A stretch of 61,736 nt of DNA from a virus, in the IMG/VR virus record IMGVR_UViG_3300031454_000003, positions 1 through 61,736 of that record; one strand, written 5' to 3'. This document shows, in pieces, positions 893-61,487 of the stretch (positions are counted from its first letter, which is position 1; every line of letters begins with the position of its first letter). The notes under the pieces were generated by a model. It saw nothing but the letters and a program-made list of their open reading frames with translations, was not told the origin of the DNA and did no database searches. The position numbers and the translations under genes were made by a program.

Positions 893-3800
893 TCAGCGCC
901 TCCGGGGGCGACGTGACCACTCGAGGGTGCTGCCCGCTGCGTTCGTCGCCATCTTCTCAACTGCGGCAGCGAATCTTTCGGCAGCGTCAAACTGTAACCG
1001 CGCCGCGTTCATCATCAGGCTCGAGGCGCGTTCCATACCGGCAACGGGCGCGGCAAACGAATCTTTAAGCCCGCTGAAGGTGATGTTTAAGCTCAGCGCG
1101 CGCTCTTGTTTACTGCTGAGTGCGAGCGTCCGCGAAGGTCCGAACAGGTCGAGTAGGCCGGTCGTAGCGGCAGCGTAAGCGAGAGCGCCGCTTGTGGCGT
1201 AACTGTAGTCAGGCAAGAACCCGTCAGCGGCAAACGCGCCGATGCTGGGCATAAAGTCTACGGGTGAGATGACCGGCGCTTCACCTGCGTAGCCCGATGA
1301 GCTGGGTGTAGGTGGCGTCGGCAGTTTCGGATACTTGAAGTTTTTAATTACGTCGGCAATACGGCCAAGCGCCCGCTGTAGGGCGGTCTCCTGATCGTTA
1401 ATAATGCCGATGTACTTGTCCATCCCGGTTTTGTAGGCGTCGCCCTGATCGCTAAACGTCGAGTTCGTTTTACCGATTACGTCGTCTCTCATTTTGCCGA
1501 GTGCGCCGGTGACGGTTGACACCGCCGAGCTGAGCGCCGACTTTTCAACGCCGGACGCTTTATCAATGATGCTGCGGAACTCGCGGCTGCCGTTGTCGAA
1601 CGTGCTGCCGATACCCCGGTAGCCTGAATCGGTGTCGCTAGAGATGGACTTTTGCCACGCGCCGAGCGCGCCGGACAAGAGCTTTTCGGCTCCTGAAATG
1701 GCACTCTGTTCAGATTTGGCGCTGCTGTCTATTTGGTTCTGATAGTCGCGGCTATCAGCCTCGTGCTCACGTTTGAGGGCGTCGTACTCACGTTGTAGGG
1801 TGGCTTTTTCGTCGCCTTTTGCCGACGCGATGAGCCGCTCAAATACGGCGGACTCTGCCGAAAACTTACTTTGCTCGGCTTCATAGGCCCGCTGAATTTG
1901 CGAGACCATCTCGCTCGAGCCTTTGCTAAGTCCGCCCGTCACGTCGCCGTAAAGCGAACCGATAGCCGACGTGATGTTTCCGCTTATGTTGCCGACGGTA
2001 CCTGAGACCGCGCTGCCTTGGGTCGTGAAGGCTTGGCTTTCGTCGTTTCCTGACGCGCTTATCGCCGCCGTGAAGATTCGTGAAGCTACCCCAACGGTGT
2101 TGCCCATGCCCGCGTAATCACCGTTTAGGACGCCGGTGATTTTTGAGACCGTATCGGTAATGCTGCTGCCGATAGCGGTGCCGCTAGTGTTGACCGAGTT
2201 GGTTACGTCGCCGGTCATGCTGTCAAACGTGGCCGCGATCTCCCCGTCTACCTGCCGGGTTGCGTCGGCGATACTCATACCGCCGCGCACAAGTTCTTCA
2301 ATACGGCTGTTTCGGGTCGAGAGTTCCAGGGCGACCTTCTCGCGCCCCGCCGCAATCTCGGCGGCAGTCATGTTCGCGCCGCTGATGAACTCGTCTTGCA
2401 GGCGCTTGGCGGATTCTCTGAGTGCGGGTGTTAGGTCGCTACGCTCGAGTAGACCTTGGAGGGTATTCTCCCGGTCCGTAAGGGCTTGCGCTTCGGTTTC
2501 CGCCCCGGCGTCTATACCTGCGGCGGTCTCCCTGCTGCCTTCTTCGTATGCGCCTGACTGCCCATCGTAAGTTGCTTGAATCAAGCCGATGATTTCATCG
2601 GCGGCGGGACCGAGCAGCGCACGGAGTTGAGCGTAGATATTGTCGAGAGCCGCTAATTGGCTCTGGTTACCTGTTTCAGCCGCTTGTCCGGCCTCTGCGC
2701 CGCCCTCTGTGTGTGCCGCCTGCTGGCCCTCGTACGTCTCATTGATAAGGGCGATAATCTCGTCAGCAGCTGGTCCCAGAATCGCGCGCAACTGTGACTC
2801 AATGTTGGACAGCGCCGCCATATGCTCAGCGTTCCCCTGTTCGGCCCCCTCTGAAACGCGAGCGCCGCCCTCGGTATGCGCGCCGTAGACCTCGTTATAC
2901 ATATCCTCGAGGTACCCGGGCAGCTCAATTCCATACTCGCGGGCGGTGGCGATAAAGTCGAGCAGAGCAAGCCGCTGTTCTTCGGTCATGTCGCCGAGAA
3001 CTTCTTGGTTCCCCTCGATGACGGCTTTCCAGTATTCTCTTTCGGACAAGCCTAGTTCTTCAGCCTGCGTTTGGGACTCGAGCAGAATAGCAGCTGAGGT
3101 GTTCGCGTAGTTTTCTTCCAATGCGTCACGTCCGGGCGCAACGATACTTTCTGCGTACGCTTCAGCTTCCTCACGGCTGATGCCGGGGTTAGCAAGAATG
3201 TACGCCCGGATGATGTCTTCCTTGTCTGTTTCTAAATCAGCCATGTCGTCCATAAACGATTGATGGGCGTCTAGAATTTTTGCGTTCGTCTCGAGTATGA
3301 GTATTTCAATATCAGACGCGCCCTGTGCTTTGGCAAGCCGGATACGTGAGTCTAGTAGGCTGTTCTCCCATTCGTCGGTAGCGTCGTTAAAGCTGTCTAT
3401 CTGATCTTGCAGCGCGGCTTCCATGCTTTCGCGCATTTCAGAACCGGCATTGTCCCAGTCGTTGCCGATGTCCTCGGCGTAACCGTCAATGGCGTCGCCA
3501 ATAATTACCGAGCCGTTGGCTACCGACCCGGCAACACCTGAGTTACCGGACTCGAGTTCAGCGATAAAGTCTTCGGTACTTTGCCCTGCTGCGAGCGCCG
3601 TATCAATACCGCCCTGAACGATGGCGTCGGCATTTAACTCGCCACCTTCTCGAATGGCGGTCTCTTCGGCGTCGAAGCCATCGTTGATTAGAGCGATGTC
3701 ATCAGGGTCGGTAATACCCTGTAGCGCCTCCCGCCTGCGTAGCGCAACGTCGGCTAAATCGTCGTTTACCTGCCGCTGGTTTTCAATGAGGTCAAGCTGG

Positions 3801-6800
3801 GTGTTGATGATGTTAAAGCTAAGCTCATCGAGCGCACCGGTCGCAAGGTCATTTTCGGCAAGTTGACGCATGTTGTCTATAGACTGGTCGATGGCACTGT
3901 CAAGTGCGTCCATCGAGCCCGTCATAGCGTCGGTAAACTGCTGCATCTCGCGCTTTGATTCGCTTACGAAGTCGATAAAGGCGTTTAACAGACCTCCCAG
4001 CGCCGCGATAGCCGCCCCGATATAGTCGCCGCTGGCAGCCTTTAGTGCGACCTGCGCGATGTCATCGATTGCTTTGACGCCCGCGTAGGCGGCGGGGCTA
4101 AGGTCGTCTCGGAAGCCTTCAGCTAGAGCGTCGATACCCGCGCCGAGAACAGCGATGCCTTCAGACGGCGTGACGACGCCATCTGAGAGCGCCTTAGACA
4201 TTCCCTTACTTGCATCCGAGAGGGCTTGCAGACCCCCTCTTGCCTGATCGGAAAGTCCAGGTATGTCGGCAAGCGCCCGGTCTGCCGCTGCACCGATCTC
4301 GTCAAAAGTAGAGGCAACATCACGCGCCAAAGCTAAAGCACGAAGGTCTTCTTGGGTCTGCCGCGCTTGCTCGCTGAGTCTGCCTGTCCCCTCTGCCGCC
4401 GTGTCGAGCGAGCTAATGAGGTCGGCTATGTCCTCGGTGGCGATACCTGAAGCGTCACCTAGTGCTTGCTGGGCGTCGCGGGTAGTTTTGAGGTTTTCGG
4501 CGTAGCGTTCGGCAGCTTCTTTTGCACGTTCTACCGCTTCAGCCTGCGCCTGAGTCTTGTCCTCAGACTCTTGCAGCGCCGTGACCCAGCCCTGTAGCCC
4601 GACCGTCGCCGGGTCGATACCTGCACGGTAGAGAGTCTCGAGTGCGCCTTGATATATCCCGGTCTTGTCGGCGTTGAACTTCGCCGCGTCGCCTGTGATA
4701 GTGAAGGCGTTCTCTGCCTCCTGTAGGGCGTTGCGTACCGTCCCCATCACATCGGCAAGAGTGTTGGTCTGTGAGATGGTCAGGGTAGAGCTAGAGGTGT
4801 ACCCGTCCTGTGTTTCTTTCAGGACACGCCACGAGTCGGAAGCCTCAGCCGCCGCTCTAGCTGCCTCGGCTTGTGCCGCTGCTAGCGTGTTGGTTTGGTC
4901 TGTAGCGATAGCCAGGCCGAGTTGCTCGAGCACGGTGGTCTGCTGATGAAAGACGGTAAGCCCATCCGCAATGGTTTTATTTAGGCCGCGCTGTGCGGCT
5001 TCTTGAGCAAACGCGGCGTCGGTGTTTGCTCTTATCGCAGCTTCGGAGGCGTCTTGGGCGTCAGCGTAAAGGTTGACGTTCTGCGCTGCGGTGCTCCATC
5101 CGAGCTGTTCGATGAGCACGCGCTGCTGGGCGAATATGGTGCTGACCGCTTGGATACTCTTATTCGCTTCGCGCTGCGCGTTGTCGTACTCGGTAACACC
5201 GTCTCTGAAGTTTGCGGCTGCGGTTGTTGCTTCCGTAAGTCGAGCCTGAACCGCCGCGATGTCTTCGTCAAACTTCTGTAAGTCTGCGGCGTCATAATCG
5301 CCAGAGGCCAGCGTATCGGCTTTTTGCTGCTTGAGTTCGGCAAGTTTGGCAGTCAGGGCATTTATCGCGGTCGTAGAGCTTATCTCCCCGCGCTGGAACG
5401 AGCTGACGATATTGTTCGCCATGTCCGCAGCGGTGCGGCCTATCTCTTCAATGTTCGCCGCAAGCCTATCGCCCGCTTCGATCTGTGAATCTATCGCCCG
5501 GATAGCTTGCAGGGCTTCAGCCTGCGCCGCCGACCCGATAGGTGAGTTTTCGTAAATCTCTACCAGCCGCTGACGCTCTTCGCGCAACGCAAGTAGTGAA
5601 CCCTCTTGCGCTTGGTTTGCTTCGCCCGCTTCGCCTTGGGTCTTGATGTATTGCTCTACGCCCGCGATAAGGACGTTGACCTCTTGGGCAACGTGCGGAT
5701 AGGCGGTGCGAAGGGCCTTAAGTTGGTTTAGAAATTGCTGGGCCTGTTCGGTGCTGAGGTTTTGCAGGCCGTTGTATTTTTCTTGCGCCCCGGTAAGACC
5801 GCCGAGTTTGTTCGCCGCCTCAACAGTTGCCTGACCGCCTCGGTTAAGCACTTCTATTTGGGCTTCGCCCTGAGAAATGAGGGGGCGCAAGGCCGCCTCG
5901 AGCTGCGGATAGACCTGCAACGCTGCGTTCAGACGGTCAACGTAAGCTTGCACCTCAGCTTTGTTTGTGCTGTACGCCTTACCCATATTGTCTATAGCGC
6001 GCTGCTGTTCTTGTTCGGCGGTTCCTAGTTTAGCTGCCGAGTCCGCCGCTTCATTTTGTGAGGTTGCAAGGCCGTCTATGCTGTCTGCTGCTGCGTCCGT
6101 AGCGGGCGGTAGACCGAAAACACCGCGTACGAAATTATCTACAGACACTAGGTTCTTTTGGTTCTCCGCTTGAAACGCCTGCATACCCTTAGTGTCAAGA
6201 GCGTCGTCTATAGCCGTGCTGATGGTGGCGTAGGTATCTTTAATGCTCTGACCTACACCGACGATTGCGCCACCGATACCGGCGATACCAGCGCCGAACT
6301 GTGCGAAGGATATACCGATCTGGCGCGCCAGTGTTTCGCTACGCCCCATAATCGGCTCGAGGCCAGCCAGACCCCGCGAAAAGTCAAGGACGTTGTTCAG
6401 TAGTCCCTGAAAAACCGGCAAGACTGCCAGCGCCATTTTGTCGCCTAAGAAACCGAACGCGCTACCGATGAGCGTAACCGTGCTGTTGAGGCTTTTTAAC
6501 TTAGCGTCAACCTCAGTTTGAAGGGCGTTTAAGTCTTCAGCTTCAGCTCGAGCCAACTTAAGTGATAAACCAAAGTCTTCATACCCGCCGACTAAGGCGT
6601 CGAGAACTCGGATGTTTTCAGAACCGCTAAAGCCCAAGTCGGCGTAAATGCCGACAAGGGACTCGCCGGAATCACTTGCTTCTTTAATGCCGCCAGTGAG
6701 CTGATAAAACGCTTCGACCGGGTTTTCCTTAAACAGCTTGGCAAACTCTTCCGAAGTCAAACCCGTGATCGCTGCAAACTTATCTAACGCCGCGCCGCCT

Positions 6801-9800
6801 TCGTCTACAGCCTTAACGATGATGTTAAAGATGCGTACGGTGCTTTCGCCGCCAGCTTCGGCGCTGAACCCTAGACTCGCGAGCGCGCCCGCCATACCTA
6901 AAATCTCAGTCTGAGACGCGCCCGCCGAGGTTGAGAGTCCGGTGAGGCGTGAGGCAAGCGCCAAGATAGGTGCTTCAGTAGTACGCAGGTTGTTGCCGAG
7001 TTCGGTGATAACGTTACCGACCAGATTAGCCGAGTCGGTGATAGACACGTTTGCGTCTTTTGTCAATCCGACGAACGTAGCAAGTTGCTGAGCACCCTCT
7101 TCTCCGACAATATCTGTGGCGATGCCCAGCTTGTTCATGATGTCAACAAAACCCGCGATGTTGTCAGCGCCTTTAATGCCGAGCTGACCCGCAACCGCCG
7201 CGTACTCCTGAAGGGCTAAGACGCCTGTGCCCGTTTCAGTCGAAATGCCTTGTAACTTCGTTTGCAACAAACCGAGTTGGTCTTGAGTCAGGCCGGTAGT
7301 CTTACCGATAGCAACCAGGCCGTCATTTAGGTCGCCAGCCCGGTCGAAAAGTGCTTTGGTCGCTACCGCCGCGCCGATGATCGCGCCGACCACACCGACC
7401 GTCAGGGCGATGTTCAACGCCTTAGCCGACAGCGAAGCTCCGGTCATTCCAGCCGACGCGCTGAACATGGCAACGCCCATCGCTTCACCCGCAGGCCCGA
7501 GGCGGTAAAGGACGTTCTGAAGCTGGTCCGAAACCCCCGCCGTGACACCTGACGCGACCCCAAAGGTGCGTACCCGGCCCTCGGCTTGCGCTAACGACGA
7601 TTCAACCCGAGTGAGACCGGTGGTGTAATTTGCGTAGGCGCGGGTGCTGTTATCCAGACCCGAGCGGCTCTGCTCGAGCGCCACGCCGATGCCGCGCGCC
7701 GAAACACTGAACTGTTCTTGCGAGATGTCGCCACGCTCTAAAGCCAGCTTGAGCTCGTTTAGTGCCGCAACTTGCTGCCGGACGTTCTCAGCCTGAAAAG
7801 CGTCACCGGCCCGCTGCTGGGCTGTGGCTAGACGCGTTGCCGCACTCTCGGTCTGCCCCATCACAGAGGCGAGCGTGCGCTGCTCGTTGGCACTTAGCGT
7901 CGTGCTATTAGCGAACTCGCGTAAACGCCCCTGAAGCGCCTCAATAGCGCGGGCGGTCTGGTCAAACGAGGTGACGCCGTTTTTGTTGGCGGTGACGATC
8001 TGCTCTAGGTCGCTGCGGAACGTCTTGAGCGCGTCAACCCGGAACGCTGCCTCGAGCTTGCTCTGCTCGGCGACAAGGCGGGTCGTTGCGCCCTCAAGCT
8101 CGCGCTCTACATTCTGTAGTGCCGTCAGCTCACGGACCGACAGGTTCGCCGCTTGTCCCGAGTCACGCAGTGAGGTGTCGAGTTTATTCAGTTCGCCTTC
8201 AATGCCTGAGAAAGCGGTACCCAGCTCACGCCCGGTGCTCTGCAAGTCCTTGAGTTCGGTGCTGTAAACCCGCACCGGCCCCGCGTCGAAGGCTCTGCTT
8301 GTGCGCTCGGCTGTGGTGCCGACCTCTAGCAGCGCCCGCTCGGATACGTCTAGCAACTTATTGAAGTCAGCAAACTCGCGGCTGTTCTGGTTCAGGGTGC
8401 TGCCGTACTCGCGCAGTCTGCTCTGCGAATCCGACACGGCGCGGGTAAAACCCTCTGCGCCGATCCCGCCTTTGTCGTAAGCCTGCACCGCGTTTTGCAA
8501 CTCACCGACGAATGAACGCAGTGCCGAAGCGTCAAACGCTCGAGCTGCTCGCTCCTGCGCCCCGGCGAAGGTGTCGGCGCTCCGGCCCGCGTCGATCTGT
8601 AAACGTGAGAAGGTATCCAGCTCACGCTCAGCTATCCCCAGCGCGGCGGCGTAGTCCTTGAACTCGGTTTGTATCTGCTGCACAGCACGAGCCGCTTGCT
8701 CGGTGCTGGTGAGGTTGCTCTTTTGCGCTTTTTCAACGTCACGGAGGCGCGCTGTGAACTGCTCGATTTCAGCACCGCGATAAGCCTGCGCCGCGCGCTC
8801 CTGTTCCCGTGTCAACGACTGTGTAGCGCGCTCGGTGGCGTCCATGACCCGGACGAGTTCCTTGTGCTCACTCGAGCCCTCTGAGAGCCCACGAGCATAG
8901 TCCTGTAACTTACCCCTCAAACCCTCGAGACCGCGCCCTAACCCGTCAAACGACCCACTCAGGCGCTCCTGCTCACCCCGGTACTGTGAAACTGCGCCTG
9001 AGTCGTACTTTAAGGCGCGCTGCTGTGAGTCGAGCCGACCGAGTTCGGCGGTCGTATTGCGGAGGGTACCCTCGAGCTGTTTTAGTTCGGTGCCGTAGGT
9101 GCGGATCTGGGCAGCGTCGTTTGCGCGAGAAGCCTTCTCCGCTGCCGTCTGATACCGCTCCTGCTGCGCTGCCGCCTCTTTAAGTAGACGACTGAACTGA
9201 TCGAACTCACGCCCGGTATTCGTGAGCGCGGCCTGTTGTTCTTTTAGTTCGGCGCTGAGTTTTTGTACACGTGTTGAGGCGTTCTCAAAACCGTCGGTGC
9301 CGGACTTTACCGCGGCGTCAATCTGCTTAAACTCGCCCGCGTAACGGCTGAGTTCATCACTGCGAAAACTAGCCGTGAGTTTGTCGGCGTCCGCCTCGAG
9401 TTTTTTGATCGCCGTCCCGGTGTCGCCCATCGCCTTAATGACAGACTTATACTCGGCGCTGTTTTTCTCGAGCGCGCCGGTCTGCTGTGCTAAGGCACTC
9501 TGATAGCTTTTGAGCTGAGAGATGGCCTGCGTTTGTGATGTGACGCCCGCTTTTTGCGCCTGCACGATGTCGAGTAGTCCCCGACCGTAGCGGGTCAGGT
9601 CTTCAGTCTTGTACGACGCGGTGAGGGACTTGTTGAGTGACTCTAGCTTTTTGCCCTCGTCGCCTGCCGCTTTCATATCTTTAGCGATGCCTAAGTATCC
9701 GGCCCCGGCTTTGTCCAGTACCGCAACCTGACCTTTTAGGATGGCCTCAAGCTCCCGGTAGCGTTGCAAGCTGCTCTGTATCTCTGCCGCGCCAGCCTTG

Positions 9801-10045
9801 ACCGCGTTCGCCAGGTTTTGCATCTCGCGCAGGGTCAGCTGCGCTTGTTTGGCGAGCGGGTCTAGGCGAGCGTTCGCTTCTTTGGCAGCGGTAGCGAGAC
9901 CCTGAAGGGCGCGCTCGAGAGTATCGGTAGATTCCTTTTTAAAGGTTTTCTCTACGGCCTGCTCGACCTCTTTTAGTGCTGTGAGGACTTTGCTGTTATC
10001 GAGTACGATTCCTACGGTTAAGGAAGCTAGCGGAATTTCTGCCAT
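893..10045 (-). CDS. tail tape measure protein, 3050 aa
   Basis: Giant ORF between the tail-tube genes and tail-tip genes. N-terminal third is made of coiled-coil repeats, with central Gly/Ala-rich hydrophobic stretches. SD GGAGGGG lies upstream. Confidence 0.9.
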   Translation of the reverse strand: MAEIPLASLTVGIVLDNSKVLTALKEVEQAVEKTFKKESTDTLERALQGLATAAKEANARLDPLAKQAQLTLREMQNLANAVKAGAAEIQSSLQRYRELEAILKGQVAVLDKAGAGYLGIAKDMKAAGDEGKKLESLNKSLTASYKTEDLTRYGRGLLDIVQAQKAGVTSQTQAISQLKSYQSALAQQTGALEKNSAEYKSVIKAMGDTGTAIKKLEADADKLTASFRSDELSRYAGEFKQIDAAVKSGTDGFENASTRVQKLSAELKEQQAALTNTGREFDQFSRLLKEAAAQQERYQTAAEKASRANDAAQIRTYGTELKQLEGTLRNTTAELGRLDSQQRALKYDSGAVSQYRGEQERLSGSFDGLGRGLEGLRGKLQDYARGLSEGSSEHKELVRVMDATERATQSLTREQERAAQAYRGAEIEQFTARLRDVEKAQKSNLTSTEQAARAVQQIQTEFKDYAAALGIAERELDTFSRLQIDAGRSADTFAGAQERAARAFDASALRSFVGELQNAVQAYDKGGIGAEGFTRAVSDSQSRLREYGSTLNQNSREFADFNKLLDVSERALLEVGTTAERTSRAFDAGPVRVYSTELKDLQSTGRELGTAFSGIEGELNKLDTSLRDSGQAANLSVRELTALQNVERELEGATTRLVAEQSKLEAAFRVDALKTFRSDLEQIVTANKNGVTSFDQTARAIEALQGRLREFANSTTLSANEQRTLASVMGQTESAATRLATAQQRAGDAFQAENVRQQVAALNELKLALERGDISQEQFSVSARGIGVALEQSRSGLDNSTRAYANYTTGLTRVESSLAQAEGRVRTFGVASGVTAGVSDQLQNVLYRLGPAGEAMGVAMFSASAGMTGASLSAKALNIALTVGVVGAIIGAAVATKALFDRAGDLNDGLVAIGKTTGLTQDQLGLLQTKLQGISTETGTGVLALQEYAAVAGQLGIKGADNIAGFVDIMNKLGIATDIVGEEGAQQLATFVGLTKDANVSITDSANLVGNVITELGNNLRTTEAPILALASRLTGLSTSAGASQTEILGMAGALASLGFSAEAGGESTVRIFNIIVKAVDEGGAALDKFAAITGLTSEEFAKLFKENPVEAFYQLTGGIKEASDSGESLVGIYADLGFSGSENIRVLDALVGGYEDFGLSLKLARAEAEDLNALQTEVDAKLKSLNSTVTLIGSAFGFLGDKMALAVLPVFQGLLNNVLDFSRGLAGLEPIMGRSETLARQIGISFAQFGAGIAGIGGAIVGVGQSIKDTYATISTAIDDALDTKGMQAFQAENQKNLVSVDNFVRGVFGLPPATDAAADSIDGLATSQNEAADSAAKLGTAEQEQQRAIDNMGKAYSTNKAEVQAYVDRLNAALQVYPQLEAALRPLISQGEAQIEVLNRGGQATVEAANKLGGLTGAQEKYNGLQNLSTEQAQQFLNQLKALRTAYPHVAQEVNVLIAGVEQYIKTQGEAGEANQAQEGSLLALREERQRLVEIYENSPIGSAAQAEALQAIRAIDSQIEAGDRLAANIEEIGRTAADMANNIVSSFQRGEISSTTAINALTAKLAELKQQKADTLASGDYDAADLQKFDEDIAAVQARLTEATTAAANFRDGVTEYDNAQREANKSIQAVSTIFAQQRVLIEQLGWSTAAQNVNLYADAQDASEAAIRANTDAAFAQEAAQRGLNKTIADGLTVFHQQTTVLEQLGLAIATDQTNTLAAAQAEAARAAAEASDSWRVLKETQDGYTSSSTLTISQTNTLADVMGTVRNALQEAENAFTITGDAAKFNADKTGIYQGALETLYRAGIDPATVGLQGWVTALQESEDKTQAQAEAVERAKEAAERYAENLKTTRDAQQALGDASGIATEDIADLISSLDTAAEGTGRLSEQARQTQEDLRALALARDVASTFDEIGAAADRALADIPGLSDQARGGLQALSDASKGMSKALSDGVVTPSEGIAVLGAGIDALAEGFRDDLSPAAYAGVKAIDDIAQVALKAASGDYIGAAIAALGGLLNAFIDFVSESKREMQQFTDAMTGSMDALDSAIDQSIDNMRQLAENDLATGALDELSFNIINTQLDLIENQRQVNDDLADVALRRREALQGITDPDDIALINDGFDAEETAIREGGELNADAIVQGGIDTALAAGQSTEDFIAELESGNSGVAGSVANGSVIIGDAIDGYAEDIGNDWDNAGSEMRESMEAALQDQIDSFNDATDEWENSLLDSRIRLAKAQGASDIEILILETNAKILDAHQSFMDDMADLETDKEDIIRAYILANPGISREEAEAYAESIVAPGRDALEENYANTSAAILLESQTQAEELGLSEREYWKAVIEGNQEVLGDMTEEQRLALLDFIATAREYGIELPGYLEDMYNEVYGAHTEGGARVSEGAEQGNAEHMAALSNIESQLRAILGPAADEIIALINETYEGQQAAHTEGGAEAGQAAETGNQSQLAALDNIYAQLRALLGPAADEIIGLIQATYDGQSGAYEEGSRETAAGIDAGAETEAQALTDRENTLQGLLERSDLTPALRESAKRLQDEFISGANMTAAEIAAGREKVALELSTRNSRIEELVRGGMSIADATRQVDGEIAATFDSMTGDVTNSVNTSGTAIGSSITDTVSKITGVLNGDYAGMGNTVGVASRIFTAAISASGNDESQAFTTQGSAVSGTVGNISGNITSAIGSLYGDVTGGLSKGSSEMVSQIQRAYEAEQSKFSAESAVFERLIASAKGDEKATLQREYDALKREHEADSRDYQNQIDSSAKSEQSAISGAEKLLSGALGAWQKSISSDTDSGYRGIGSTFDNGSREFRSIIDKASGVEKSALSSAVSTVTGALGKMRDDVIGKTNSTFSDQGDAYKTGMDKYIGIINDQETALQRALGRIADVIKNFKYPKLPTPPTPSSSGYAGEAPVISPVDFMPSIGAFAADGFLPDYSYATSGALAYAAATTGLLDLFGPSRTLALSSKQERALSLNITFSGLKDSFAAPVAGMERASSLMMNAARLQFDAAERFAAAVEKMATNAAGSTLEWSRRPRRR
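2552..2881 (-). repeat. tandem 165-nt (55-aa) duplication inside the tape measure
   Basis: AHTEGGARVSEGAEQGN..LRAILGPAADEIIALINETYEGQ is followed by AHTEGGAEAGQAAETGN..LRALLGPAADEIIGLIQATYDGQ. Confidence 0.8.
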
Positions 10046-14026: not shown

Positions 14027-14809
14027 CTAAAACAATCTCCCCGCAAAATCTAAAGGTGATTTTGTACCTTTTTGTAAATTGCAGGTTTTGCAGGCACAAA
14101 CTATATTTGAAGGATCATTGCTACCTCCATTCGCCAAAGCAATTACATGGTCAACATGGTATCCAGATTTTTTCAAATCAGTACCACACCACCAACACCT
14201 ACCTTTTTGAATCTGAAACCGCTTTTTAATGTCAGTGGAATTTACTGTCCCGCCGCCTGCGCGTTTGCGTGCCTTGCGTACTCTAGCGTGAAGACGGGCC
14301 GTCTCGGGATTAGCAGCACGATTTCTTCTTGCTCTAGCCCTTTCTTTTTCGGGGTCGGCTCGTCGGCGCGCTTCCCGGCTGAGCGCCCGGCAATGTTCCA
14401 CGTTAGCGTAGTATGCATCCTGACGCCGAGCCTTGCGCGTTTCGGGATTTTCCCTTTTATACAAAACCGCCCTTTGCGCTATACAGCGTTCACGATTTTT
14501 TTCATAGTGCGCGCACTGATACTTGTTATCACATTCTCGGCATGTTCTTTTGAGGCCATCGCCGTGTTTGGAAACCAGAAAGAACTCTGACGTTCTTTCA
14601 TACGAACGTTGACAAGACGTACAAACCGCCCTGTCAACTTCTTTGACGGGGCGGTTTACTTCTCTCCAAGCCTTATTTTTCACACTTACACAAGATTTGC
14701 AATAGTAATCTAAGCCATCATTTCTGTCTCTTCGTATAGAAAAGTTAGAAAATGGCTTAACTTGCTTGCATGAAGCACAGGGCTTGGAGCCTTCGGGTAG
14801 ACTATCCAC
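14027..14809 (-). CDS. HNH endonuclease, family A (CxxC N-terminus, basic middle, C-terminal HNH)
   Basis: QKGRCWWCGTDLKKSGYHVDHVIALANGGSNDPSNIVCACKTCNLQKGTKSPLDFAGRLF. GTG start behind AGGAGG. Confidence 0.85.
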   Translation of the reverse strand: MDSLPEGSKPCASCKQVKPFSNFSIRRDRNDGLDYYCKSCVSVKNKAWREVNRPVKEVDRAVCTSCQRSYERTSEFFLVSKHGDGLKRTCRECDNKYQCAHYEKNRERCIAQRAVLYKRENPETRKARRQDAYYANVEHCRALSREARRRADPEKERARARRNRAANPETARLHARVRKARKRAGGGTVNSTDIKKRFQIQKGRCWWCGTDLKKSGYHVDHVIALANGGSNDPSNIVCACKTCNLQKGTKSPLDFAGRLF

Positions 14810-14832
14810 AGCGGCCTCCTAATAGGTCGTCA

Positions 14833-14886
14833 GTCCCTTTCGGTGCTCTGCCAAGAATCACCGTCTGGGACGCTTTTATTCTACCA
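14833..14886 (-). promoter_or_regulatory. private HNH promoter (TGgTAGAAT) plus nested leader hairpin
   Basis: Sense strand reads TGGTAGAAT aaaa GCGTCCC AGAC GGTG attcttggcagag CACC GAAA GGGAC. Confidence 0.55.
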
Positions 14887-25077: not shown

Positions 25078-25408
25078 TAGCTCCTCCTTCCTCCGCCGTG
25101 GTCTCACCTTGTGGTGTGGGCTGCTGGGCGTCCGGTGTAGTGAGGGTTTCTTTTGCCCCGGCTTTTAGAGTCTCTGCCATTCGGTAAAACGTTTTTTGAT
25201 CTATGTCTGGCAACTCTGCGGTGAAGCTATAAGCAGCTCTAAATGCCCCTATAAGCTTCTCGGCCTCCGCAAGTGTTAAGCGGGGTAAATCTTCAGCCTC
25301 CGGTTTGATAGCAGGGTCGGGCGGGCGCTCGTAAGACGACAGCCGGGAGAGTTCAGCCCAGAGCGGGGCGCGGCGGGCGAAGTAGCCGGGGGCGTACAAG
25401 GCACTCAC
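25070..25408 (-). CDS. hypothetical protein
   Basis: GTGA overlap with the HNH gene stop. Confidence 0.5.
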   Translation of the reverse strand: MSALYAPGYFARRAPLWAELSRLSSYERPPDPAIKPEAEDLPRLTLAEAEKLIGAFRAAYSFTAELPDIDQKTFYRMAETLKAGAKETLTTPDAQQPTPQGETTAEEGGANG

Positions 25409-26091
25409 ACGAGGCTCCAAGTTCTGCCGAGTTTAATTGCACTGATTGCCGATTGAGTGACGTTAAATCTTTTAGCTATTTCTTTTTGCGTAATTTTTTC
25501 GTTCAAAAGGTCTCGAATTTGAACAACATCTTTTTTGGACAGTTTTGAAAGATTACATTCTTCAGCCAAGGGGATATAATTACGCCCCTTAGCGAGCATG
25601 TCCTTGATGTTATCAAGCTGCGTACCAAGCCATAAATGTTCAGGGTTGACACAGCGGGGGTTATCGCAGGTATGGCAGACAAAAAAAGCGCCCGGCTCTT
25701 CTCCGTGAGCGAGGTAGTAACTGTAACGATGTGCTTTTAAGTTTTTCCCCGCCAGTTTGAAATACCCATAACCATTTGGCTGAAGAGCTCCCCTCCAAAG
25801 CCAGCAAGTGTCAGTTTTTTCTACTTTGCTCCAAAATCTTTTTTCATCGTTACCGATGATTGTTCCGATTTCTAGAGTTCCATTATTTGTAAATCTGCTG
25901 TAATGCTTAGAGCAAAAGCCCTTACCCCGGTGCTTGCTTTCGCAACCTTCAACTGAGCAAGATTCTCGAAAACTACTTTCAAGCTTGCCTGTGCGCTTTA
26001 CCCGCGCATAATGTTTGCCACACAATCCTTTTGCTAGATACTTGTCCTCACACCCATCAACAGTGCAAGTACGAACAGGTATACTTCCCAT
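25405..26091 (-). CDS. HNH endonuclease, family B (HNH_3-like plus C-terminal HTH)
   Basis: CWLWRGALQPNGYGYF..AHRYSYYLAHGEEP..VCHTCDNPRCVNPEHLWLGTQLDN and ITQKEIAKRFNVTQSAISAIKLG. Confidence 0.8.
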   Translation of the reverse strand: MGSIPVRTCTVDGCEDKYLAKGLCGKHYARVKRTGKLESSFRESCSVEGCESKHRGKGFCSKHYSRFTNNGTLEIGTIIGNDEKRFWSKVEKTDTCWLWRGALQPNGYGYFKLAGKNLKAHRYSYYLAHGEEPGAFFVCHTCDNPRCVNPEHLWLGTQLDNIKDMLAKGRNYIPLAEECNLSKLSKKDVVQIRDLLNEKITQKEIAKRFNVTQSAISAIKLGRTWSLV

Positions 26092-26116
26092 TGCAGTCAC
26101 CTCCAGTGGTTGTCGC

Positions 26117-26164
26117 GTCCGGGAGGTGCTGATACACCGAGTCCCGGACACTTCTATAATATCA
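26117..26164 (-). promoter_or_regulatory. private HNH promoter (TGaTATTAT) plus nested leader hairpin
   Basis: GTCCGGG ACTC GGTG tatcag CACC T CCCGGAC, followed by GGAGGT and ATG. Confidence 0.55.
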
Positions 26165-26186
26165 CAATTTGCCGTGCTAGACAGCA

Positions 26187-27101
26187 TTAGTTTAGCCTTC
26201 CTCTCTGTAGATTTAACTCATCGTTCCAGTCCATTCCTGGGATTGCGGGTATGTAGACCTTAACGTTTCTCCCTTGTCTGCTAAAACGTTGCGCTGCGGC
26301 GTAGGCCGCAAGCTGACCTGCAAACTCGGTTGTGCTGTCTTCATCCCCGAAAATGGTGACGTTGCGGATGCTTTCAGGCAGCTCTACAGTCTCGAGGCCG
26401 AATGCTGAGACGCACGCCCACACCGGTAGGTTGAAAAGCTCGGCGGCGGCGGCGGCGGTCTCTATTCCTTCGGCTAATCCAACCTCACTAGCGGCAGTCC
26501 ATAACCGTACTGCCGCCCCCTTAATGGTTGTCGTCGGCGTCATCGTCCTTTTCGGATCGGGTATCACTGCCTTGCGATTGCCCTCCAGAAACGTCCTGTG
26601 TATGGACACGGCCTTACCGCTCACGTTTTGCAGAATGCCGAGCATGGCTGGAAACGTCCTGCCCTCAGCCCGTAAGCCAGGGTGAAAGCGCAAACCGGTA
26701 GGTAAACGGGATAGACCTCTTGCCCGTAGGTACTGGTGAGCCTGGTCGCCATGCTTTACCGGGTGTGAACCTAGCCAGATGCGGTTGAGTGCTTTCGCAG
26801 GATCGCGTTTAGGCTGAAACCTGACTTTTTCGGGTACACCTAAGACGCGCTCGACCTCGCGGGCAGTGCGCTTGAAGTCCCATGAGTTGAGAGACATAAG
26901 CAAATCGAAGCCGTCATGAGGGCCACACGCACGGCAGTAGTAGGTGCCGCGTCCCTCGAGGTCGGTAAACGACGCCCGGTCGTTGCCACCGCACAGCACA
27001 CACGGGCGGTTAGGTTTAGATAACGCCGACTCGGGTACGCCTAGCTGAGTAAGTACGTGCAGCCAATGCCCGCTCGCGGCTTCTTTCGCGGAAGTTGTCA
27101 A
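26187..27101 (-). CDS. DNA primase (zinc-ribbon plus Toprim type)
   Basis: CVLCGGNDRASFTDLEGRGTYYCRACGPHDGFDLL, later Toprim-like GLAEGIETAAA ... IFGDED. Confidence 0.7.
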   Translation of the reverse strand: MTTSAKEAASGHWLHVLTQLGVPESALSKPNRPCVLCGGNDRASFTDLEGRGTYYCRACGPHDGFDLLMSLNSWDFKRTAREVERVLGVPEKVRFQPKRDPAKALNRIWLGSHPVKHGDQAHQYLRARGLSRLPTGLRFHPGLRAEGRTFPAMLGILQNVSGKAVSIHRTFLEGNRKAVIPDPKRTMTPTTTIKGAAVRLWTAASEVGLAEGIETAAAAAELFNLPVWACVSAFGLETVELPESIRNVTIFGDEDSTTEFAGQLAAYAAAQRFSRQGRNVKVYIPAIPGMDWNDELNLQRGRLN

Positions 27102-27769
27102 AACAACCGCCCCGCAAACTCTAAGGGAGTTTTTGCACTCTTACTTTGGTTGCACCAAGCGCATGAACACACAATATTTTCAGGGCCGTTAGAGCCGCCT
27201 CGAGCAAGGGCTATCACATGATCAACGTGGAACTTACCTTTGCCGGACTTTTTTAGTTTGACGCCACACCACCAGCAACGGCCTTTTTGAGCCTCACACT
27301 GCTTTGCAACATCTAACGCAGTGTGAACACCGCCAACACTTTTAACCCGAGAGCGCCGCTTGCGAGTATTCGCTAAGCCCTCTTCGGGTCGGTCACGCCA
27401 GTACTGGCGGTTTTTTTCACGAAGAGCCTCACGGTTTGCCTCACGGTACTTCGCTTTATGCTCAAGGTTTCTGACAGGGTTTGCTTGCACCCAGCGTACA
27501 AGCCTTTCGGCAGCTGCTTCAGGGTTTTCAAGCTGATACTTTGAGCGTGTTGCCCGAGCCCGCTCAAGGTTGTTTTGATACCAAGCGCGCTCTTTTGCTT
27601 TGCACTTTTCGAGGTTATTCTCTCTGTAAGCTTTATCCGAAAGGGACTTGCAGGTTTTACAAGAAGGGCTCAGGCCATCTCGCTTTTGACTGTTTCGAAC
27701 GAAAAACTCAGGAGTAGGGGGTTTAGAAACGCCGCACTTAGTGCAGACCTTTTCAGGTACAATACCCAT
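27098..27769 (-). CDS. HNH endonuclease, family A
   Basis: QKGRCWWCGVKLKKSGKGKFHVDHVIALARGGSNGPENIVCSCAWCNQSKSAKTPLEFAGRLF. Confidence 0.85.
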   Translation of the reverse strand: MGIVPEKVCTKCGVSKPPTPEFFVRNSQKRDGLSPSCKTCKSLSDKAYRENNLEKCKAKERAWYQNNLERARATRSKYQLENPEAAAERLVRWVQANPVRNLEHKAKYREANREALREKNRQYWRDRPEEGLANTRKRRSRVKSVGGVHTALDVAKQCEAQKGRCWWCGVKLKKSGKGKFHVDHVIALARGGSNGPENIVCSCAWCNQSKSAKTPLEFAGRLF

Positions 27770-27791
27770 TGCAGACCTCCGCGTCTGTCGT

Positions 27792-27836
27792 GCCAGGGCG
27801 GTGTTGAAGCACCGAGTCCCTGGCTTTATTGTATCA
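27792..27836 (-). promoter_or_regulatory. private HNH promoter (TGaTACAAT) plus nested leader hairpin, abutting the helicase stop
   Basis: GCCAGGG ACTC GGTG cttcaa CACC G CCCTGGC, followed by GGAGGT and ATG. Confidence 0.55.
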
Positions 27837-30175: not shown

Positions 30176-30645
30176 GCCGCTAGCTGCTGTCTGCTTTGCA
30201 GATACGCCCGTAGTGCGGCCTCTGCCTGCTTGTTCATAGCCTTCGTTACCGAGTTCTCCCAGCCGGTGCTATTTGCGTAGGAGAACCATTTTTCTACCCA
30301 GCCCTTTAATTCGTCCTCACCCGTTAGCCACACCTTTTCGGTCGTGTAGCCGGGGTAAGGATAAAAGCATTGCAAGGCGGCGGGTTTATTAGGCTGCCCC
30401 CAGATAACGAAGGTTGTTACAAGCCCGGTTGCCTGCAAGCTGCAAAACATCCGGCGTTGCCCTTCGGGGATCGGGTTATTCGGTAGCTTTGCCTCAAAAA
30501 GTAACAGGTGACTGTTTCTCTCGACCATCCCGTCACCGTCTGATACCCGTATCTTTGTGCTACCAAAACAACCGTTTAGAAATGACCAGTCCCATACTGT
30601 TGCAGCGTATTTGCCTAAGTCGCGGATATTGCCGTGAGTTGTCAT
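30172..30645 (-). CDS. PD-(D/E)xK-like nuclease-fold protein (tentative)
   Basis: SDGDGMVERNSHLLLFEAKLP...EGQRRMF has D...E.K spacing. Confidence 0.35.
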   Translation of the reverse strand: MTTHGNIRDLGKYAATVWDWSFLNGCFGSTKIRVSDGDGMVERNSHLLLFEAKLPNNPIPEGQRRMFCSLQATGLVTTFVIWGQPNKPAALQCFYPYPGYTTEKVWLTGEDELKGWVEKWFSYANSTGWENSVTKAMNKQAEAALRAYLQSRQQLAA

Positions 30646-38511: not shown

Positions 38512-38550
38512 GTGACCTCCGTATAATCAAATTAGTAATAAGGTCGGGCT

Positions 38551-38600
38551 TAAAAATAGCTCTGCTAAGATGCACTTCTCACAGCAGCATCTAGCAGAGC
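38551..38600 (-). terminator. strong intrinsic terminator inside the early-operon leader
   Basis: Sense strand reads GCTCTGCTAGATGC (13-nt loop) GCATCTTAGCAGAGC TATTTTTA. Confidence 0.6.
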
Positions 38601-38870: not shown

Positions 38871-38899
38871 TTGACCTAAACCAAAGCTTATAGTATAAA
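38871..38899 (+). promoter_or_regulatory. repressor promoter: TTGACC-17-TATAAA, 7 nt before the ATG (leaderless)
   Basis: ttgacc taaaccaaagcttatag tataaa tctagta ATG. Confidence 0.55.
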
Positions 38900-42807: not shown

Positions 42808-42850
42808 TGTTACAATAGATGTGCCTCACGAGGTTCGAGCCTCTAGGCAC
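42808..42850 (+). promoter_or_regulatory. private HNH promoter (TGtTACAAT) plus nested leader hairpin
   Basis: GTGCCT CAC GAGG ttcgag CCTC T AGGCAC, followed by GGAAGGAG and ATG. Confidence 0.55.
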
Positions 42851-42875
42851 TCTGCGCTCTGGAAGGAGCAACAGC

Positions 42876-43535
42876 ATGTCAAATATAGCACCGGAACTAA
42901 AAGTATGTTTGAAATGTGGAGTGGCATATCCACTTGATGACTACCGTATTGAGATGAGACGAGGTAAGCCATATCGTCGGCCCGATTGTAGGACTTGTAG
43001 GGCAGAGACGTCTAAACAGTATTATGAGGCGAATAAAGAAAAGATCATGCAGACTGGCAGGGTTTGGGCAAAACAGAATAGAGAGCACGTCGCCGCTAAA
43101 ATACGACAACGACGACGTGCAAAAACACAAGAGAAAAAAGCCGCTCGAGCAGTCGTACCACATCCTGATAATATTGTTTTAATATCGGCCTTAAGGCGCT
43201 CCTTAAAACAGTGGAGTCCTGAAAAAGACCGAGCGGCTGCTCATAACACTAGAGCCAAGAATTTAGGTATTAAAGGCCGAATTACCTTTTTCGATATACA
43301 AGCCAAGCTTTTAGAGCAGGATTTTTTCTGCTACCTGTGTGGCGCTATGTTAGAAGACAACTACCATGTAGACCATGTTCTGGCGTTGGCGAGGGGCGGC
43401 GCGAACGATCCGGGTAACATTGCTATAGCATGTTCGCTTTGTAACTGGTCAAAAAATGACCGTGACCTTAAAGAGTATAAGGATTTTGAGAAACAGACCC
43501 TTAAGAAACCCACTCCGAAAACGGCGTTTCATTAG
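42876..43535 (+). CDS. HNH endonuclease, family A
   Basis: YHVDHVLALARGGANDPGNIAIACSLCNWSKNDR. N-terminal CLKCG...CRTC. Confidence 0.85.
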   Translation: MSNIAPELKVCLKCGVAYPLDDYRIEMRRGKPYRRPDCRTCRAETSKQYYEANKEKIMQTGRVWAKQNREHVAAKIRQRRRAKTQEKKAARAVVPHPDNIVLISALRRSLKQWSPEKDRAAAHNTRAKNLGIKGRITFFDIQAKLLEQDFFCYLCGAMLEDNYHVDHVLALARGGANDPGNIAIACSLCNWSKNDRDLKEYKDFEKQTLKKPTPKTAFH

Positions 43536-50542: not shown

Positions 50543-50595
50543 TGTTATAATGGAAAAACCGACAGGTCATAGGGATGTCCGTCCCTCGCTGCCGG
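50543..50595 (+). promoter_or_regulatory. private HNH promoter (TGtTATAAT) plus nested leader hairpin
   Basis: CCGACAG g tcat AGGGA tgtccg TCCCT cg CTGCCGG, followed by GGAGGT and ATG. Confidence 0.5.
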
Positions 50596-50622
50596 TCACT
50601 AGGCACATCGGAGGTGCATAGC

Positions 50623-51216
50623 ATGACAATTTTACCCCTTTCTAAAACTTGCGTACATTGTGATAACGAGTTTCCGGCTACCGCTGAGTATTTTCACCGC
50701 GATAAAAAACGTGAGGGTGGACTTTATCCGCGTTGCAAAGTTTGTAAGTACATAGCGACGCGAAACCTAACAACCGCACAACGTTTTGGGCAATCCGTAA
50801 ATAAAACGTCAGATTGTTGGTTATGGACAGATCGGCTTAAAGACAACGGCTATGCAACATTTACATGGAAAGGCGTCGGGCATTATGTGCACCGTTATAG
50901 CTATGGACTACACTATGGAAAATTTGACACAACCTTACAGGTTTTACATACATGCGATGTCCGAAATTGCGTTAATCCTGAACATCTCTTCCTTGGCACA
51001 ATTGCGGACAATATGGCTGACAAAGTGGCTAAAGGTAGACAGCGGCGGGGTGTAGCACATCTAATGGCAAAGCTTACGGAAGAGGATGTAACGAAGATTC
51101 GGCATGCCTACGCCGAGAAACGTTACAGCCAGAGCCAACTAGGTAAGCAATTCGGTGTTACCCAAACTTGTATCGGGGCGATTGTGAGACGGAAAACTTG
51201 GTCTCATATTATGTGA
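50623..51216 (+). CDS. HNH endonuclease, family B
   Basis: CWLWTDRLKDNGYATF..HRYSYGLHYG..HTCDVRNCVNPEHLFLGTIADN and a C-terminal HTH. Confidence 0.8.
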   Translation: MTILPLSKTCVHCDNEFPATAEYFHRDKKREGGLYPRCKVCKYIATRNLTTAQRFGQSVNKTSDCWLWTDRLKDNGYATFTWKGVGHYVHRYSYGLHYGKFDTTLQVLHTCDVRNCVNPEHLFLGTIADNMADKVAKGRQRRGVAHLMAKLTEEDVTKIRHAYAEKRYSQSQLGKQFGVTQTCIGAIVRRKTWSHIM

Positions 51217-60796: not shown

Positions 60797-61405
60797 TTAA
60801 AAAAGCCTCCCTGCAAAATCAAGGGGGCTTCTAGCGTGCTTACTCAAATTGCATGTAGGGCAACTGCACACTAGATTCTCTGGGCCGTTAGAACCGCCTT
60901 TTGAAAGTGCTACAACATGGTCAACGTGGTACTTACCCTTGCCGGACTTCTTGAGCTTGGCTCCACACCACCAGCACATGCCTTTTTGGGCATCAAACTG
61001 CCTAGCCACATCCTCGGCGGTATGTGTGCCTTGAGCGCCGCGCTTAAGTGCCTGCCTTTTTCTTTGATAAGCTGCATCTTTGTCAAGGTTTGCTTTTCTC
61101 CAAGCTGTTTTTCTTCCTGGGTTTTCTTCACACCACCTTGCAGTACGCGCCCTTGCTTCTGCGGCATGGGTGGCGCTATACTCCCTATTTTTTTCTATAA
61201 ACCTTGTGCGATTGGCTGCGTAATGTATTTTCGCTTTGTGTCTATTTTCCGCGCGATTGGCTAGGTAGTGTTCTCTCTGATACTCCTTAACGCAAACTCT
61301 ACAGTGTGATGATAAACCACTTTTAGACCGAGAGTATTTAAGAAATTCCGATGGGGGTTTCTTTTCCTTGCACTTATTACAACATTTCAGCGATAAACTA
61401 TCCAT
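60797..61405 (-). CDS. HNH endonuclease, family A
   Basis: QKGMCWWCGAKLKKSGKGKYHVDHVVALSKGGSNGPENLVCSCPTCNLSKHARSPLDFAGRLF. Confidence 0.85.
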   Translation of the reverse strand: MDSLSLKCCNKCKEKKPPSEFLKYSRSKSGLSSHCRVCVKEYQREHYLANRAENRHKAKIHYAANRTRFIEKNREYSATHAAEARARTARWCEENPGRKTAWRKANLDKDAAYQRKRQALKRGAQGTHTAEDVARQFDAQKGMCWWCGAKLKKSGKGKYHVDHVVALSKGGSNGPENLVCSCPTCNLSKHARSPLDFAGRLF

Positions 61406-61432
61406 TAGCTCAACTCCTCATAAGTTGGGTTA

Positions 61433-61487
61433 GCGTCCCTTTCGGCAAACTTCCACGTATGCCGTCTGGGACGCGCTTATTATATCA
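61433..61487 (-). promoter_or_regulatory. private HNH promoter (TGaTATAAT) plus nested leader hairpin
   Basis: TGATATAAT aagc GCGTCCC AGAC GGCA tacgtggaagtt TGCC GAAA GGGACGC. Confidence 0.55.

Follow-up and report, generated by a model that had tools for sequence, protein, structure and literature searches.

The virus record IMGVR_UViG_3300031454_000003 from IMG/VR, a stretch of 61,736 nucleotides (nt) that was analyzed at its full length and is referred to here as the window, carries six free-standing genes for HNH endonucleases, each preceded by a short leader in which an extended -10 box, a hairpin, and a Shine-Dalgarno (SD) sequence follow one another. In the current study, we describe these leaders, their relatives in other phages and metagenomes, and the roles that the hairpin may play. 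The genes are labeled A1–A4 (family A) and B1 and B2 (family B), and a box, hairpin, SD sequence, and gene are together called a cassette. The original prediction, made from the window alone, regarded the six leaders as one module private to HNH genes, with nested hairpins maintained by compensatory changes. This observation is real yet somewhat overstated: the hairpins of A3 and B2 are weak, the arrangement is not private to HNH genes, and the six leaders do not form one family. The proposal of a selected structure in mobile, self-contained expression units does find support, most of it from sequences other than the window.

Six HNH genes and their leaders

The window looks like a complete and very novel temperate phage genome, with genes for a large terminase, major head protein, primase, DNA methyltransferase, serine integrase, and helicase. 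A search of 50,697 phage records returned no match either by DNA (megablast) or by capsid protein, and the primase has no relative in IMG/VR; the terminase is 49% identical to terminases of Thermobifida and Streptomyces phages. Nor did the megablast, capsid, and primase searches yield, in the collections searched, any HNH-free relative from which insertion sites could be defined. Across the whole window, no tRNAs and no Rfam family at gathering threshold were detected.

Family A comprises A1 (14027..14809, minus strand; 260 amino acids, Pfam HNH_5 and HNH, GC content at third codon positions (GC3) 0.40), A2 (27098..27769, minus strand; 223 amino acids), the divergent A3 (42876..43535, plus strand; 219 amino acids), and A4 (60797..61405, minus strand; 202 amino acids), the last three matching Pfam HNH/HNH_5. 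In family B, an HNH_3 domain is combined with a C-terminal helix-turn-helix (HTH) in B1 (25405..26091, minus strand; 228 amino acids) and with an N-terminal zinc ribbon of the A type in B2 (50623..51216, plus strand; 197 amino acids). All of the HNH/HNH_5 (A1–A4) and HNH_3 (B1, B2) matches exceed the curated Pfam cut-offs, so that each protein carries the HNH catalytic motif, and Pfam agrees for all six with their initial division into two families. With all six proteins as queries, tblastn against the window found no further paralog. Residues 1–47 of B2 (50623-50763, plus strand) are homologous to the zinc ribbon of A2 (27632-27769, minus strand; 38% identity, E=5e-7 by tblastn), and DNA-binding and catalytic modules therefore seem to have been shuffled between the two families.

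On the gene map, the HNH genes lie between helicase and primase, after the primase, among structural genes, and after the integrase, and five of the six cassettes have the orientation of the neighboring genes. As stand-alone open reading frames (ORFs) of foreign composition inserted between phage genes, they have the character of homing-endonuclease genes. The GC content of the cassettes is 44-51%, compared to 55.5% for the window, and their GC3 is 0.40-0.43, compared to mostly 0.55-0.72 in other ORFs (with a few others down to 0.44-0.49). They had been described as poor in CTCGAG and as making up about 7% of the genome, which was borne out by the counts (2 sites against 8.6 expected; 7.2% of the window).

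Upstream of each gene stands a box of the form TGnTAnnAT, with exactly the strings first reported: TGGTAGAAT for A1 (14878..14886, minus strand; no usable -35), TGATACAAT for A2 (27828..27836, minus strand), TGTTACAAT for A3 (42808..42816, plus strand), TGATATAAT for A4 (61479..61487, minus strand), TGATATTAT for B1 (26156..26164, minus strand), and TGTTATAAT for B2 (50543..50551, plus strand). The motif itself (TGNTANNAT) is not enriched in the window, where 10 copies are found on both strands against 12 expected by chance. Its placement is what stands out: six of the 10 copies are situated 58-73 nt upstream of the six HNH starts, and these six score higher than any other -10 box when all 33 intergenic gaps of 45 nt or more are compared. 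In a generic -35/-10 scan, which required at least four of six matches per hexamer and covered positions 1-59999, no usable -35 was listed for the boxes of A1, A2, A3, B1, or B2. The absence of these five boxes from the scan therefore fits -35-independent extended -10 promoters, in which TG lies one base 5' of a TAnnnT hexamer with no usable -35; for A4, the -35 region lies outside the scanned range. Judged by their consensus, the six boxes would be active promoters for the host primary sigma factor, and it is the consensus box without a -35 that is specific to the HNH genes.

Closely 3' of each box lies a hairpin whose first paired base is 0-6 nt away (the distance first given was 3-7 nt), and the inner and outer stem sequences had been quoted correctly. 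Stability was expressed as minimum free energy (MFE) and as a z value against dinucleotide shuffles. The hairpin of A1 (14833..14871, minus strand) reads GTCCC-AGA-CGGTG...CACCG-AAA-GGGAC, with an MFE of -18.9, z=-3.1, and its first paired base 4-6 nt after the box. Those of A2 (27792..27824, minus strand; GCCAGGG-ACT-CGGTG-CTTCAA-CACCG-CCCTGGC; MFE -21.5, z=-4.25), A4 (61433..61474, minus strand; GCGTCCC-AGA-CGGCA...TGCCG-AAA-GGGACGC; MFE -25.2, z=-4.93), and B1 (26115..26151, minus strand; GTGTCCGGG-ACT-CGGTG...CACC(T)-CCCGGACGC; MFE -26.2, z=-4.5) are likewise strong. The A3 hairpin (42817..42853, plus strand; (AGA)-GTGCCT-CAC-GAGGT-TCGA-GCCTC-T-AGGCAC-(TCT); MFE -18.0, z=-1.57) is marginal, and that of B2 (50558..50596, plus strand; ACCG-A-CAG...AGGGAT-GTCC-GTCCCT...CTG-C-CGGT; MFE -15.4, z=-0.39) is weak and not significant. 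Thus, the two-tier hairpin that had been claimed for all six genes is clearly non-random in A1, A2, A4, and B1 (z -3.1 to -4.9, ranking in about the top 1% of genome windows), but not in A3 or B2. Apical loops are 4 to 13 nt long, and the bulges are asymmetric. On the sense strand, the hairpins are not followed by a U-tract (the tails are GACUGACG, ACGACAGA, UCUGCGCU, UAACCCAA, GCGACAAC, and CACUAGGC), and a terminator scan of positions 1-59999 lists none of them; the GC-rich stem with a trailing U-tract that typifies an intrinsic terminator is therefore not present in these leaders.

Each leader ends, as had been proposed, in an SD sequence and a start codon, with GGAGG, GGAG, or GAGGAG 5-8 nt before the start. 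GGAGG is found in A1 (14815..14819, minus strand; 5 nt before a GTG start) and B1 (26100..26104, minus strand), and GAGGAG in A4 (61414..61419, minus strand). In A2, a second small hairpin (CAGAC-GCGGAG-GTCTG, 27772..27787, minus strand) holds the GGAGG (27776-27780) mostly in its loop; the GGAGG of B2 (50610..50614, plus strand) lies partly in the loop of a small hairpin, and the AAGGAG of A3 (42863..42868, plus strand) is paired in a small second hairpin and has low predicted accessibility.

Open frames run through four of the leaders, namely those of A2, B1, A3, and B2 (27098-27880, 25405-26187, 42819-43535, and 50575-51216, respectively). Public gene calls (P0001 at 250 amino acids, P0004, and P0005) begin upstream and translate the hairpin; For A2, database calls lengthen the protein in this way from 223 to 250 amino acids. 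Such upstream starts probably represent a systematic misannotation of start codons. The possibility that the leader encodes an N-terminal extension was rejected, given the in-frame stops in A1 and A4 and the lack of an SD sequence at the upstream starts; the N-termini of paralogs and homologs, all of which align from M-x-x-x-P...C-x-x-C, also count against a coding leader.

Leader classes, relatives, and genomic context

Family-A HNH loci were retrieved by protein from IMG/VR and metagenomes, and individual loci are designated here by L-numbers. The idea of a single module family did not survive comparison: a covariance model built from A2, B1, and L023 recovers only A2 and B1 in the window, and a single model for all six leaders failed, with MAFFT unable to align the classes structurally. 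By sequence, three or more unrelated classes are represented among the window leaders, and A3 and B2 each stand alone. Compensatory stem changes, which had been proposed across the whole set, hold within the alignable groups A1/A4 and A2/B1/L023 but not across all six. A1 and A4 differ by two compensatory inner-stem pairs (CGGTG/CACCG versus CGGCA/TGCCG), and in A2/B1/L023 two outer-stem pairs are changed on both sides and one is mismatched, which is not significant with three sequences. The nucleases of A2 and B1 are of different families, but the two genes have a common leader, extending from the -10 box over the hairpin and SD sequence to about 10 codons into the gene, and are dissimilar upstream of the box.

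The description of the arrangement as private to HNH genes was likewise too strong, as two other sigma-70-type promoters in the window also lead into 5' hairpins. Six nt past the promoter TTGACA-17-TACACT (48611-48639, plus strand), a two-tier hairpin begins (48646-48686, z=-3.3), with a GAGGAG and the start of an ORF at 48702 behind it, and TTGACA-17-TGTCATAAT (45465-45493, plus strand) is followed by a weaker hairpin (to 45546) before an ORF at 45573. The former ORF (48702-49133) has no Pfam match, and the latter (45573-45869) has a weak match to GemA.

The layout of box, hairpin, and SD sequence was found before family-A HNH genes in many unrelated contigs. In 253 kb of sequence from 44 non-redundant loci, TG.TA[TAC]A[AC]T occurs 30 times; 11 of these copies lie within the 100 nt before family-A HNH starts, against 0.5 expected, an enrichment of about 20-fold. 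The leaders were sorted into three classes. Those of class (i) form a three-way junction, P1-CUAG-P2-CGAAAA-P3-CUG-P1', which is the Rfam motif int-alpA (RF02996; Weinberg et al. 2017, PMC5737381); in 13 of 14 such leaders of relatives, the box-to-stem gap is 4-7 nt. L284 scores 37.6 bits and the Salmonella phage Segz_1 scores 42.6 bits with this model (gathering threshold 35.8), and L273, L033, and L035 fall just below. The hairpin of class (ii) has two tiers, a bulge of one base, and a CUGGAAA loop, and it is located 17-23 nt from the box in eight of nine cases. Class (iii), also a two-tier hairpin, has the inner stem (C)GGUG/CACC(G) and includes A1, A2, B1, L023, L053, L057, L259, and L272b. 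Covariation is strong in class (ii), where an unambiguous alignment of 10 leaders is 97% paired, with changes on both sides at nine of 10 pairs; the covariation score of 0.86 compares to 0.25 in shuffles, was reached by none of 500 shuffles, and contrasts with 0.08-0.18 in slid controls.

The same leaders also precede genes for other nucleases. In L023, the leader stands before a third kind of HNH protein, and in L272 it stands before a second gene, whose product, probably a LAGLIDADG protein, carries the same zinc ribbon at its N-terminus (a weak Pfam match with an incomplete query). The E. coli phage Bas80 carries the same leader type before a T5orf172/MUG113 "endonuclease" gene, Bas80_0063, that lies antisense among tail genes, and the two-tier version precedes family-A HNH genes in two more cultured phages, namely gp35 of Ralstonia phage Raharianne and gp20 of Pseudanabaena phage Pam1. 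The hosts of module-bearing phages thus include cyanobacteria and beta- and gamma-proteobacteria. The module is not obligatory, being missing from most HNH_3 relatives, from Bacillus phage BCP8-2, and from Sinorhizobium phage AP-16-3. It is also not exclusive to nucleases, since in Segz_1 (L343, MH791402 41711-41757) an int-alpA element lies 5 nt after a TATAAT box and directly before the large-terminase gene. The proposal that the cassettes are self-contained mobile units is upheld by their atypical composition, the leader common to A2 and B1, the zinc ribbon of B2, and the presence of the same leaders before other nucleases.

Several of these loci have further features. About 25 entero-, Vibrio, and Aeromonas phages related to Segz_1 share its int-alpA/terminase layout, with the element unannotated in all records, and the Segz_1 large-terminase gene holds an intein with a LAGLIDADG-like block. 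L275 (IMGVR_UViG_3300020049_008505) contains three modules of promoter and structured leader within 1.5 kb (at ~1091, ~1991, and ~2508), one of them int-alpA-like and placed before a non-HNH ORF, and the contig is apparently cassette-rich. L259, a 61-kb contig (ENA ERZ25071726), has an HNH gene with the same leader type, an IS200/IS605 pair (Y1_Tnp and OrfB/TnpB), a GIY-YIG gene, and a terminase with an intein. A second hairpin with the SD sequence in its loop, like that of A2, is also present in L023, L259, L302, and Pam1. Pattern searches of IMG/VR added little: the pattern GGGACTCGGTG...CACCNCCC gave six matches, of which one (L023) is real, the A1/A4 hairpin pattern gave none, and a looser hairpin pattern gave more than 119, all by chance within coding DNA except L023.

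In the spacers between hairpin and SD sequence, unrelated leaders have short motifs in common that are rich in C and A and poor in G (e.g., 61420-61432 and 27788-27791 in the window; L344, L345, L012). CUAACC(C/A) is shared by A4, Pam1, Raharianne, L012, and L077, and (C)GAC by A1, A2, B1, L023, L273, and L034; these motifs may enhance translation or belong to the leader motif itself.

Elsewhere in the window, the phage's largest gene is an ORF of 3050 amino acids (893-10045, minus strand) with no Pfam family above threshold. A probable immunity switch is located at 38512-38906 and 38907-39782 (plus strand), with a CI-like repressor of the HTH/S24 type. The repressor start codon is about 9 nt 3' of a TTGACC-17-TATAAT-like promoter, and its mRNA is therefore probably leaderless. 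The divergent leader of the adjacent minus-strand genes has TGATAGACT followed by a strong hairpin and T-tract (38557-38606), a possible attenuator. The palindrome bias of the whole window is extreme: CTCGAG occurs 119 times against 18 expected, a 6.6-fold excess, and CGGCCG, GCCGGC, GGGCCC, CTGCAG, ACTAGT, and ATTAAT are all absent (expected 28, 28, 28, 18, 11.5, and 7.3, respectively). This pattern suggests restriction avoidance together with a so far unexplained modification motif or positive selection; the gene for the DNA methyltransferase lies at 30642-31751.

Possible roles of the leader

We tentatively read each HNH gene as a horizontally acquired, self-contained cassette in which the 5' structure stabilizes or insulates the mRNA. 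To judge from its consensus, the -35-independent extended -10 promoter would be read by the host polymerase carrying the primary sigma factor, and from the spacing, transcription would begin about 7 nt 3' of the box, either where the outer stem begins or 0-3 nt into that stem. The mRNA would then begin with a GC-rich bulged hairpin bearing almost no single-stranded tail, followed by a short, mostly C/A-rich spacer, a strong SD sequence (in the loop of a small second hairpin in A2, A4, and B2), and the start codon. As RNA, the hairpin may protect the mRNA against decay that depends on the 5' end (RppH/RNase E or RNase J), and it may also hold the folding of the ribosome site constant, whatever sequence lies upstream. 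Expression of the nuclease would then be independent of the site and orientation in which the cassette inserts.

Because the box and the stem are separated by 0-6 nt in the window and by 4-7 nt in nearly all int-alpA-type leaders, the first transcribed nucleotides are predicted to be paired. Such pairing is a hallmark of 5'-terminal stabilizers, and stabilization, together with insulation of the ribosome site, is therefore taken as the most likely role. The recurrence of the layout at two non-HNH promoters of the window and at the Segz_1 terminase gene argues for a general mRNA function over a nuclease-specific one. In class (ii), the greater distance between box and hairpin means that the transcript would start with an SD-like GAGG, which resembles known stabilizers of the STAB-SD type. 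Masking of the ribosome site in read-through transcripts, as in phage T4, was considered and is unsupported, since predicted SD accessibility is equal in own-promoter and read-through RNAs for five of the six leaders.

A number of observations weigh against stabilization as the sole role. In many relatives, a single-stranded 5' tail of 12-20 nt is predicted before the hairpin, which weakens a model of pure 5'-end protection. The inner stem GGUG/CACC recurs in at least eight unrelated loci, and sequence conservation is also seen in the loop CUGGAAA of class (ii) and in the int-alpA junctions CUAG/CGAAAA/CUG; a generic stabilizer would not need such conservation of loops and junctions, which argues against a purely generic role. 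The hairpins of A3 (z -1.57) and B2 (z -0.39, with only the inner stem kept in the centroid) are weak. Finally, no G-U pair was found among 97 class (ii) pairs, and in 37 of 47 leaders, the antisense strand folds no less stably than the sense strand; as indicators of RNA versus DNA, the strand tests by G-U/A-C counts and by fold stability contradict each other.

Alternatively, the leader could be a specific regulatory RNA, such as a protein site (e.g., for an autoregulating nuclease zinc ribbon), a site for a host or phage factor, or a put-like antiterminator, which we regard as possible but doubtful. This reading would account for the inner stem (C)GGUG/CACC(G) shared by all class (iii) leaders, whose outer stems vary freely, for the constant class (ii) loop, and for the presence in the same slot of other relatives of int-alpA (RF02996) with its conserved junction nucleotides. 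The position of int-alpA at the head of the Segz_1 terminase gene is a plausible one for antitermination, and the leader co-travels with the region coding for the N-terminal zinc ribbon across nuclease families. Such a partner protein is, however, hypothetical; the apical loops of the window type vary (CUUCAA, UAUCAG, UGUGAC, UCUCAC), one leader type serves proteins with differing N-termini (A2, B1, and the L023 protein), and the six window leaders represent at least three unrelated sequence classes. An improbable alternative is that the inverted repeat acts as DNA, either as a cruciform or single-strand hairpin at the cassette boundary, with recombination like that of promoter-early stem-loop (PeSL) cassettes, or as an operator with co-evolving half-sites. 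The 29 double changes of class (ii) came without a single G-U pair, and its sole mismatches are A-C, which correspond to G-U on the other strand; the similarity of A2 and B1 starts exactly at the -10 box and stops about 10 codons into otherwise unrelated genes, which suggests recombination joints flanking the leader, and PeSL cassettes provide a precedent (PMC2839356). The folding advantage of the antisense strand is attributable to A/C-rich unpaired positions on the sense strand, and over all 47 leaders, helix-internal G-U pairs outnumber A-C mismatches on the sense strand (20 versus 9). The constant position between a consensus -10 box and an SD sequence fits a transcribed element, and asymmetric bulges, loops of 4 to 13 nt, and the three-way-junction variant poorly suit a cruciform or dimeric operator. 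The original prediction had favored a selected structure rather than a protein operator; the layout preserved with other stem sequences and the class (ii) covariation agree with the former, and varying loops, asymmetric bulges, and the three-way junction do not fit a dimeric operator, but a protein-binding role is possible because the inner stem GGUG/CACC recurs in unrelated contigs.

We give very little credence to the proposal that the hairpins are intrinsic terminators for the opposite strand, with the box and A-rich spacer as the complement of a U-tract. T-rich opposite-strand tails do occur at A1, A2, and B2, and weakly at A4 (e.g., GGGACGC-TTTTATTC and CCCTGGC-TTTATTGT), but the terminator scan of positions 1-59999 lists none on either strand, and in relatives that keep perfect TGGTATAAT or TGTTATAAT boxes, the opposite-strand sequence after the hairpin is A-rich rather than T-rich. 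The idea was rejected on these two grounds; in addition, little antisense transcription is expected, as five of the six cassettes are co-oriented with their neighbors. It is equally hard to believe that the hairpins are functionless chance features of a GC-rich genome beside real promoters. Strong hairpins are frequent in this genome of 55% GC, and those of B2 and A3 are not significant, but four of the six reach z -3.1 or lower and rank in about the top 1% of genome windows, and the layout and covariation recur in dozens of unrelated contigs.

Free-standing homing-endonuclease genes need expression from arbitrary sites without disturbing host-phage operons, and the solution is known in detail only for phage T4; a conserved cassette of promoter and 5' structure that is common to several nuclease families and host phyla would meet this need in a general way. 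A further-reaching proposal, which we consider conceivable yet rather unlikely, is that homing-endonuclease genes of several kinds (HNH, HNH_3, T5orf172/GIY-YIG-like, and probably LAGLIDADG) share a portable module of extended -10 promoter and structured RNA with covarying classes, one of them int-alpA, in which the RNA is a dedicated cis-regulator (e.g., a nuclease autoregulation site or polymerase-modifying element) and not a mere stabilizer. If true, this would give the orphan motif int-alpA its first functional context, with tractable systems in E. coli phage Bas80, Salmonella phage Segz_1, Ralstonia phage Raharianne, and Pseudanabaena phage Pam1. The motif int-alpA gains a reproducible context, the predicted transcription start of phage genes, and its function becomes testable in cultured coliphages. 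For annotation, it matters that gene callers run these ORFs through the leader, and compact, context-independent expression units could serve as parts for phage engineering.

Comparison with known systems

The closest curated family is int-alpA, although the window leaders fail its model: no match reaches the gathering threshold of 35.8 bits in the window, and none was found at E<=10 in the A2, A4, and A1 leaders. In relatives of these HNH genes, int-alpA fills the same slot, with its 5' end 4-7 nt from a consensus -10 box and its 3' end upstream of the SD sequence; like the window leaders, it is phage-associated and has a closing stem that pairs the extreme 5' end. It differs in being a three-way junction with conserved CUAG/CGAAAA/CUG joints and, in the Rfam consensus, a terminal U-tract, whereas the window leaders are simple bulged hairpins of two stacked stems (P1-AGA-P2-AAA-P1' in A1 and A4). 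A1 and A4 have in common with int-alpA only a "...CCGAAAGGG" stretch, and the third stem is missing. A hammerhead or other ribozyme was considered for the three-way junction and set aside, as the joint sequences do not fit and Rfam returns int-alpA only.

The closest concept is that of the PeSL cassettes of T4-type phages (PMC2839356, PMC4122927), with which the window leaders share the character of small promoter, stem-loop, and SD modules on horizontally moving accessory genes, with apparent joints for modular shuffling. In PeSL cassettes, whose promoters have full -35 and -10 boxes, the stem-loop either covers the -10 box or occupies the space between the two boxes, and it terminates upstream transcription (PMC2839356). 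The hairpins of the window instead begin 0-6 nt 3' of the -10 box, within the predicted transcript, and have neither a U-tract nor a -35 in their promoters. In phage T4 itself, genes for homing endonucleases (I-TevI and relatives) have their own promoter and a leader RNA hairpin inside operons, and I-TevI represses its own promoter; mobE has no promoter of its own (PMC2790892). There, the hairpin masks the ribosome site in read-through RNA, and the late promoter starts inside the hairpin. In the window leaders, by contrast, the promoter is upstream of the hairpin and the hairpin upstream of the SD sequence, whose accessibility is independent of transcript origin. In the literature searched, which was incomplete, no paper was found that describes a promoter-coupled structured leader as a common feature of free-standing endonuclease genes.

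The put RNA of phage HK022 is a cis-acting antiterminator of about 70 nt, formed by two stem-loops with conserved features of their own. It resembles the present leaders in being a structured RNA just downstream of a phage promoter; no similarity of the window leaders to put was found, and the window has no Rfam match. The 5'-terminal mRNA stabilizers, such as the stem-loop of the ompA 5' untranslated region, the STAB-SD of cryIIIA, and the 5' stabilizer of phage SP82, begin at their extreme 5' end either with an SD-like sequence or with a stem-loop that is preceded by few or no unpaired nucleotides. These stabilizers are functional classes rather than sequence families, and, as judged by spacing, both of their layouts occur among the leaders described here.

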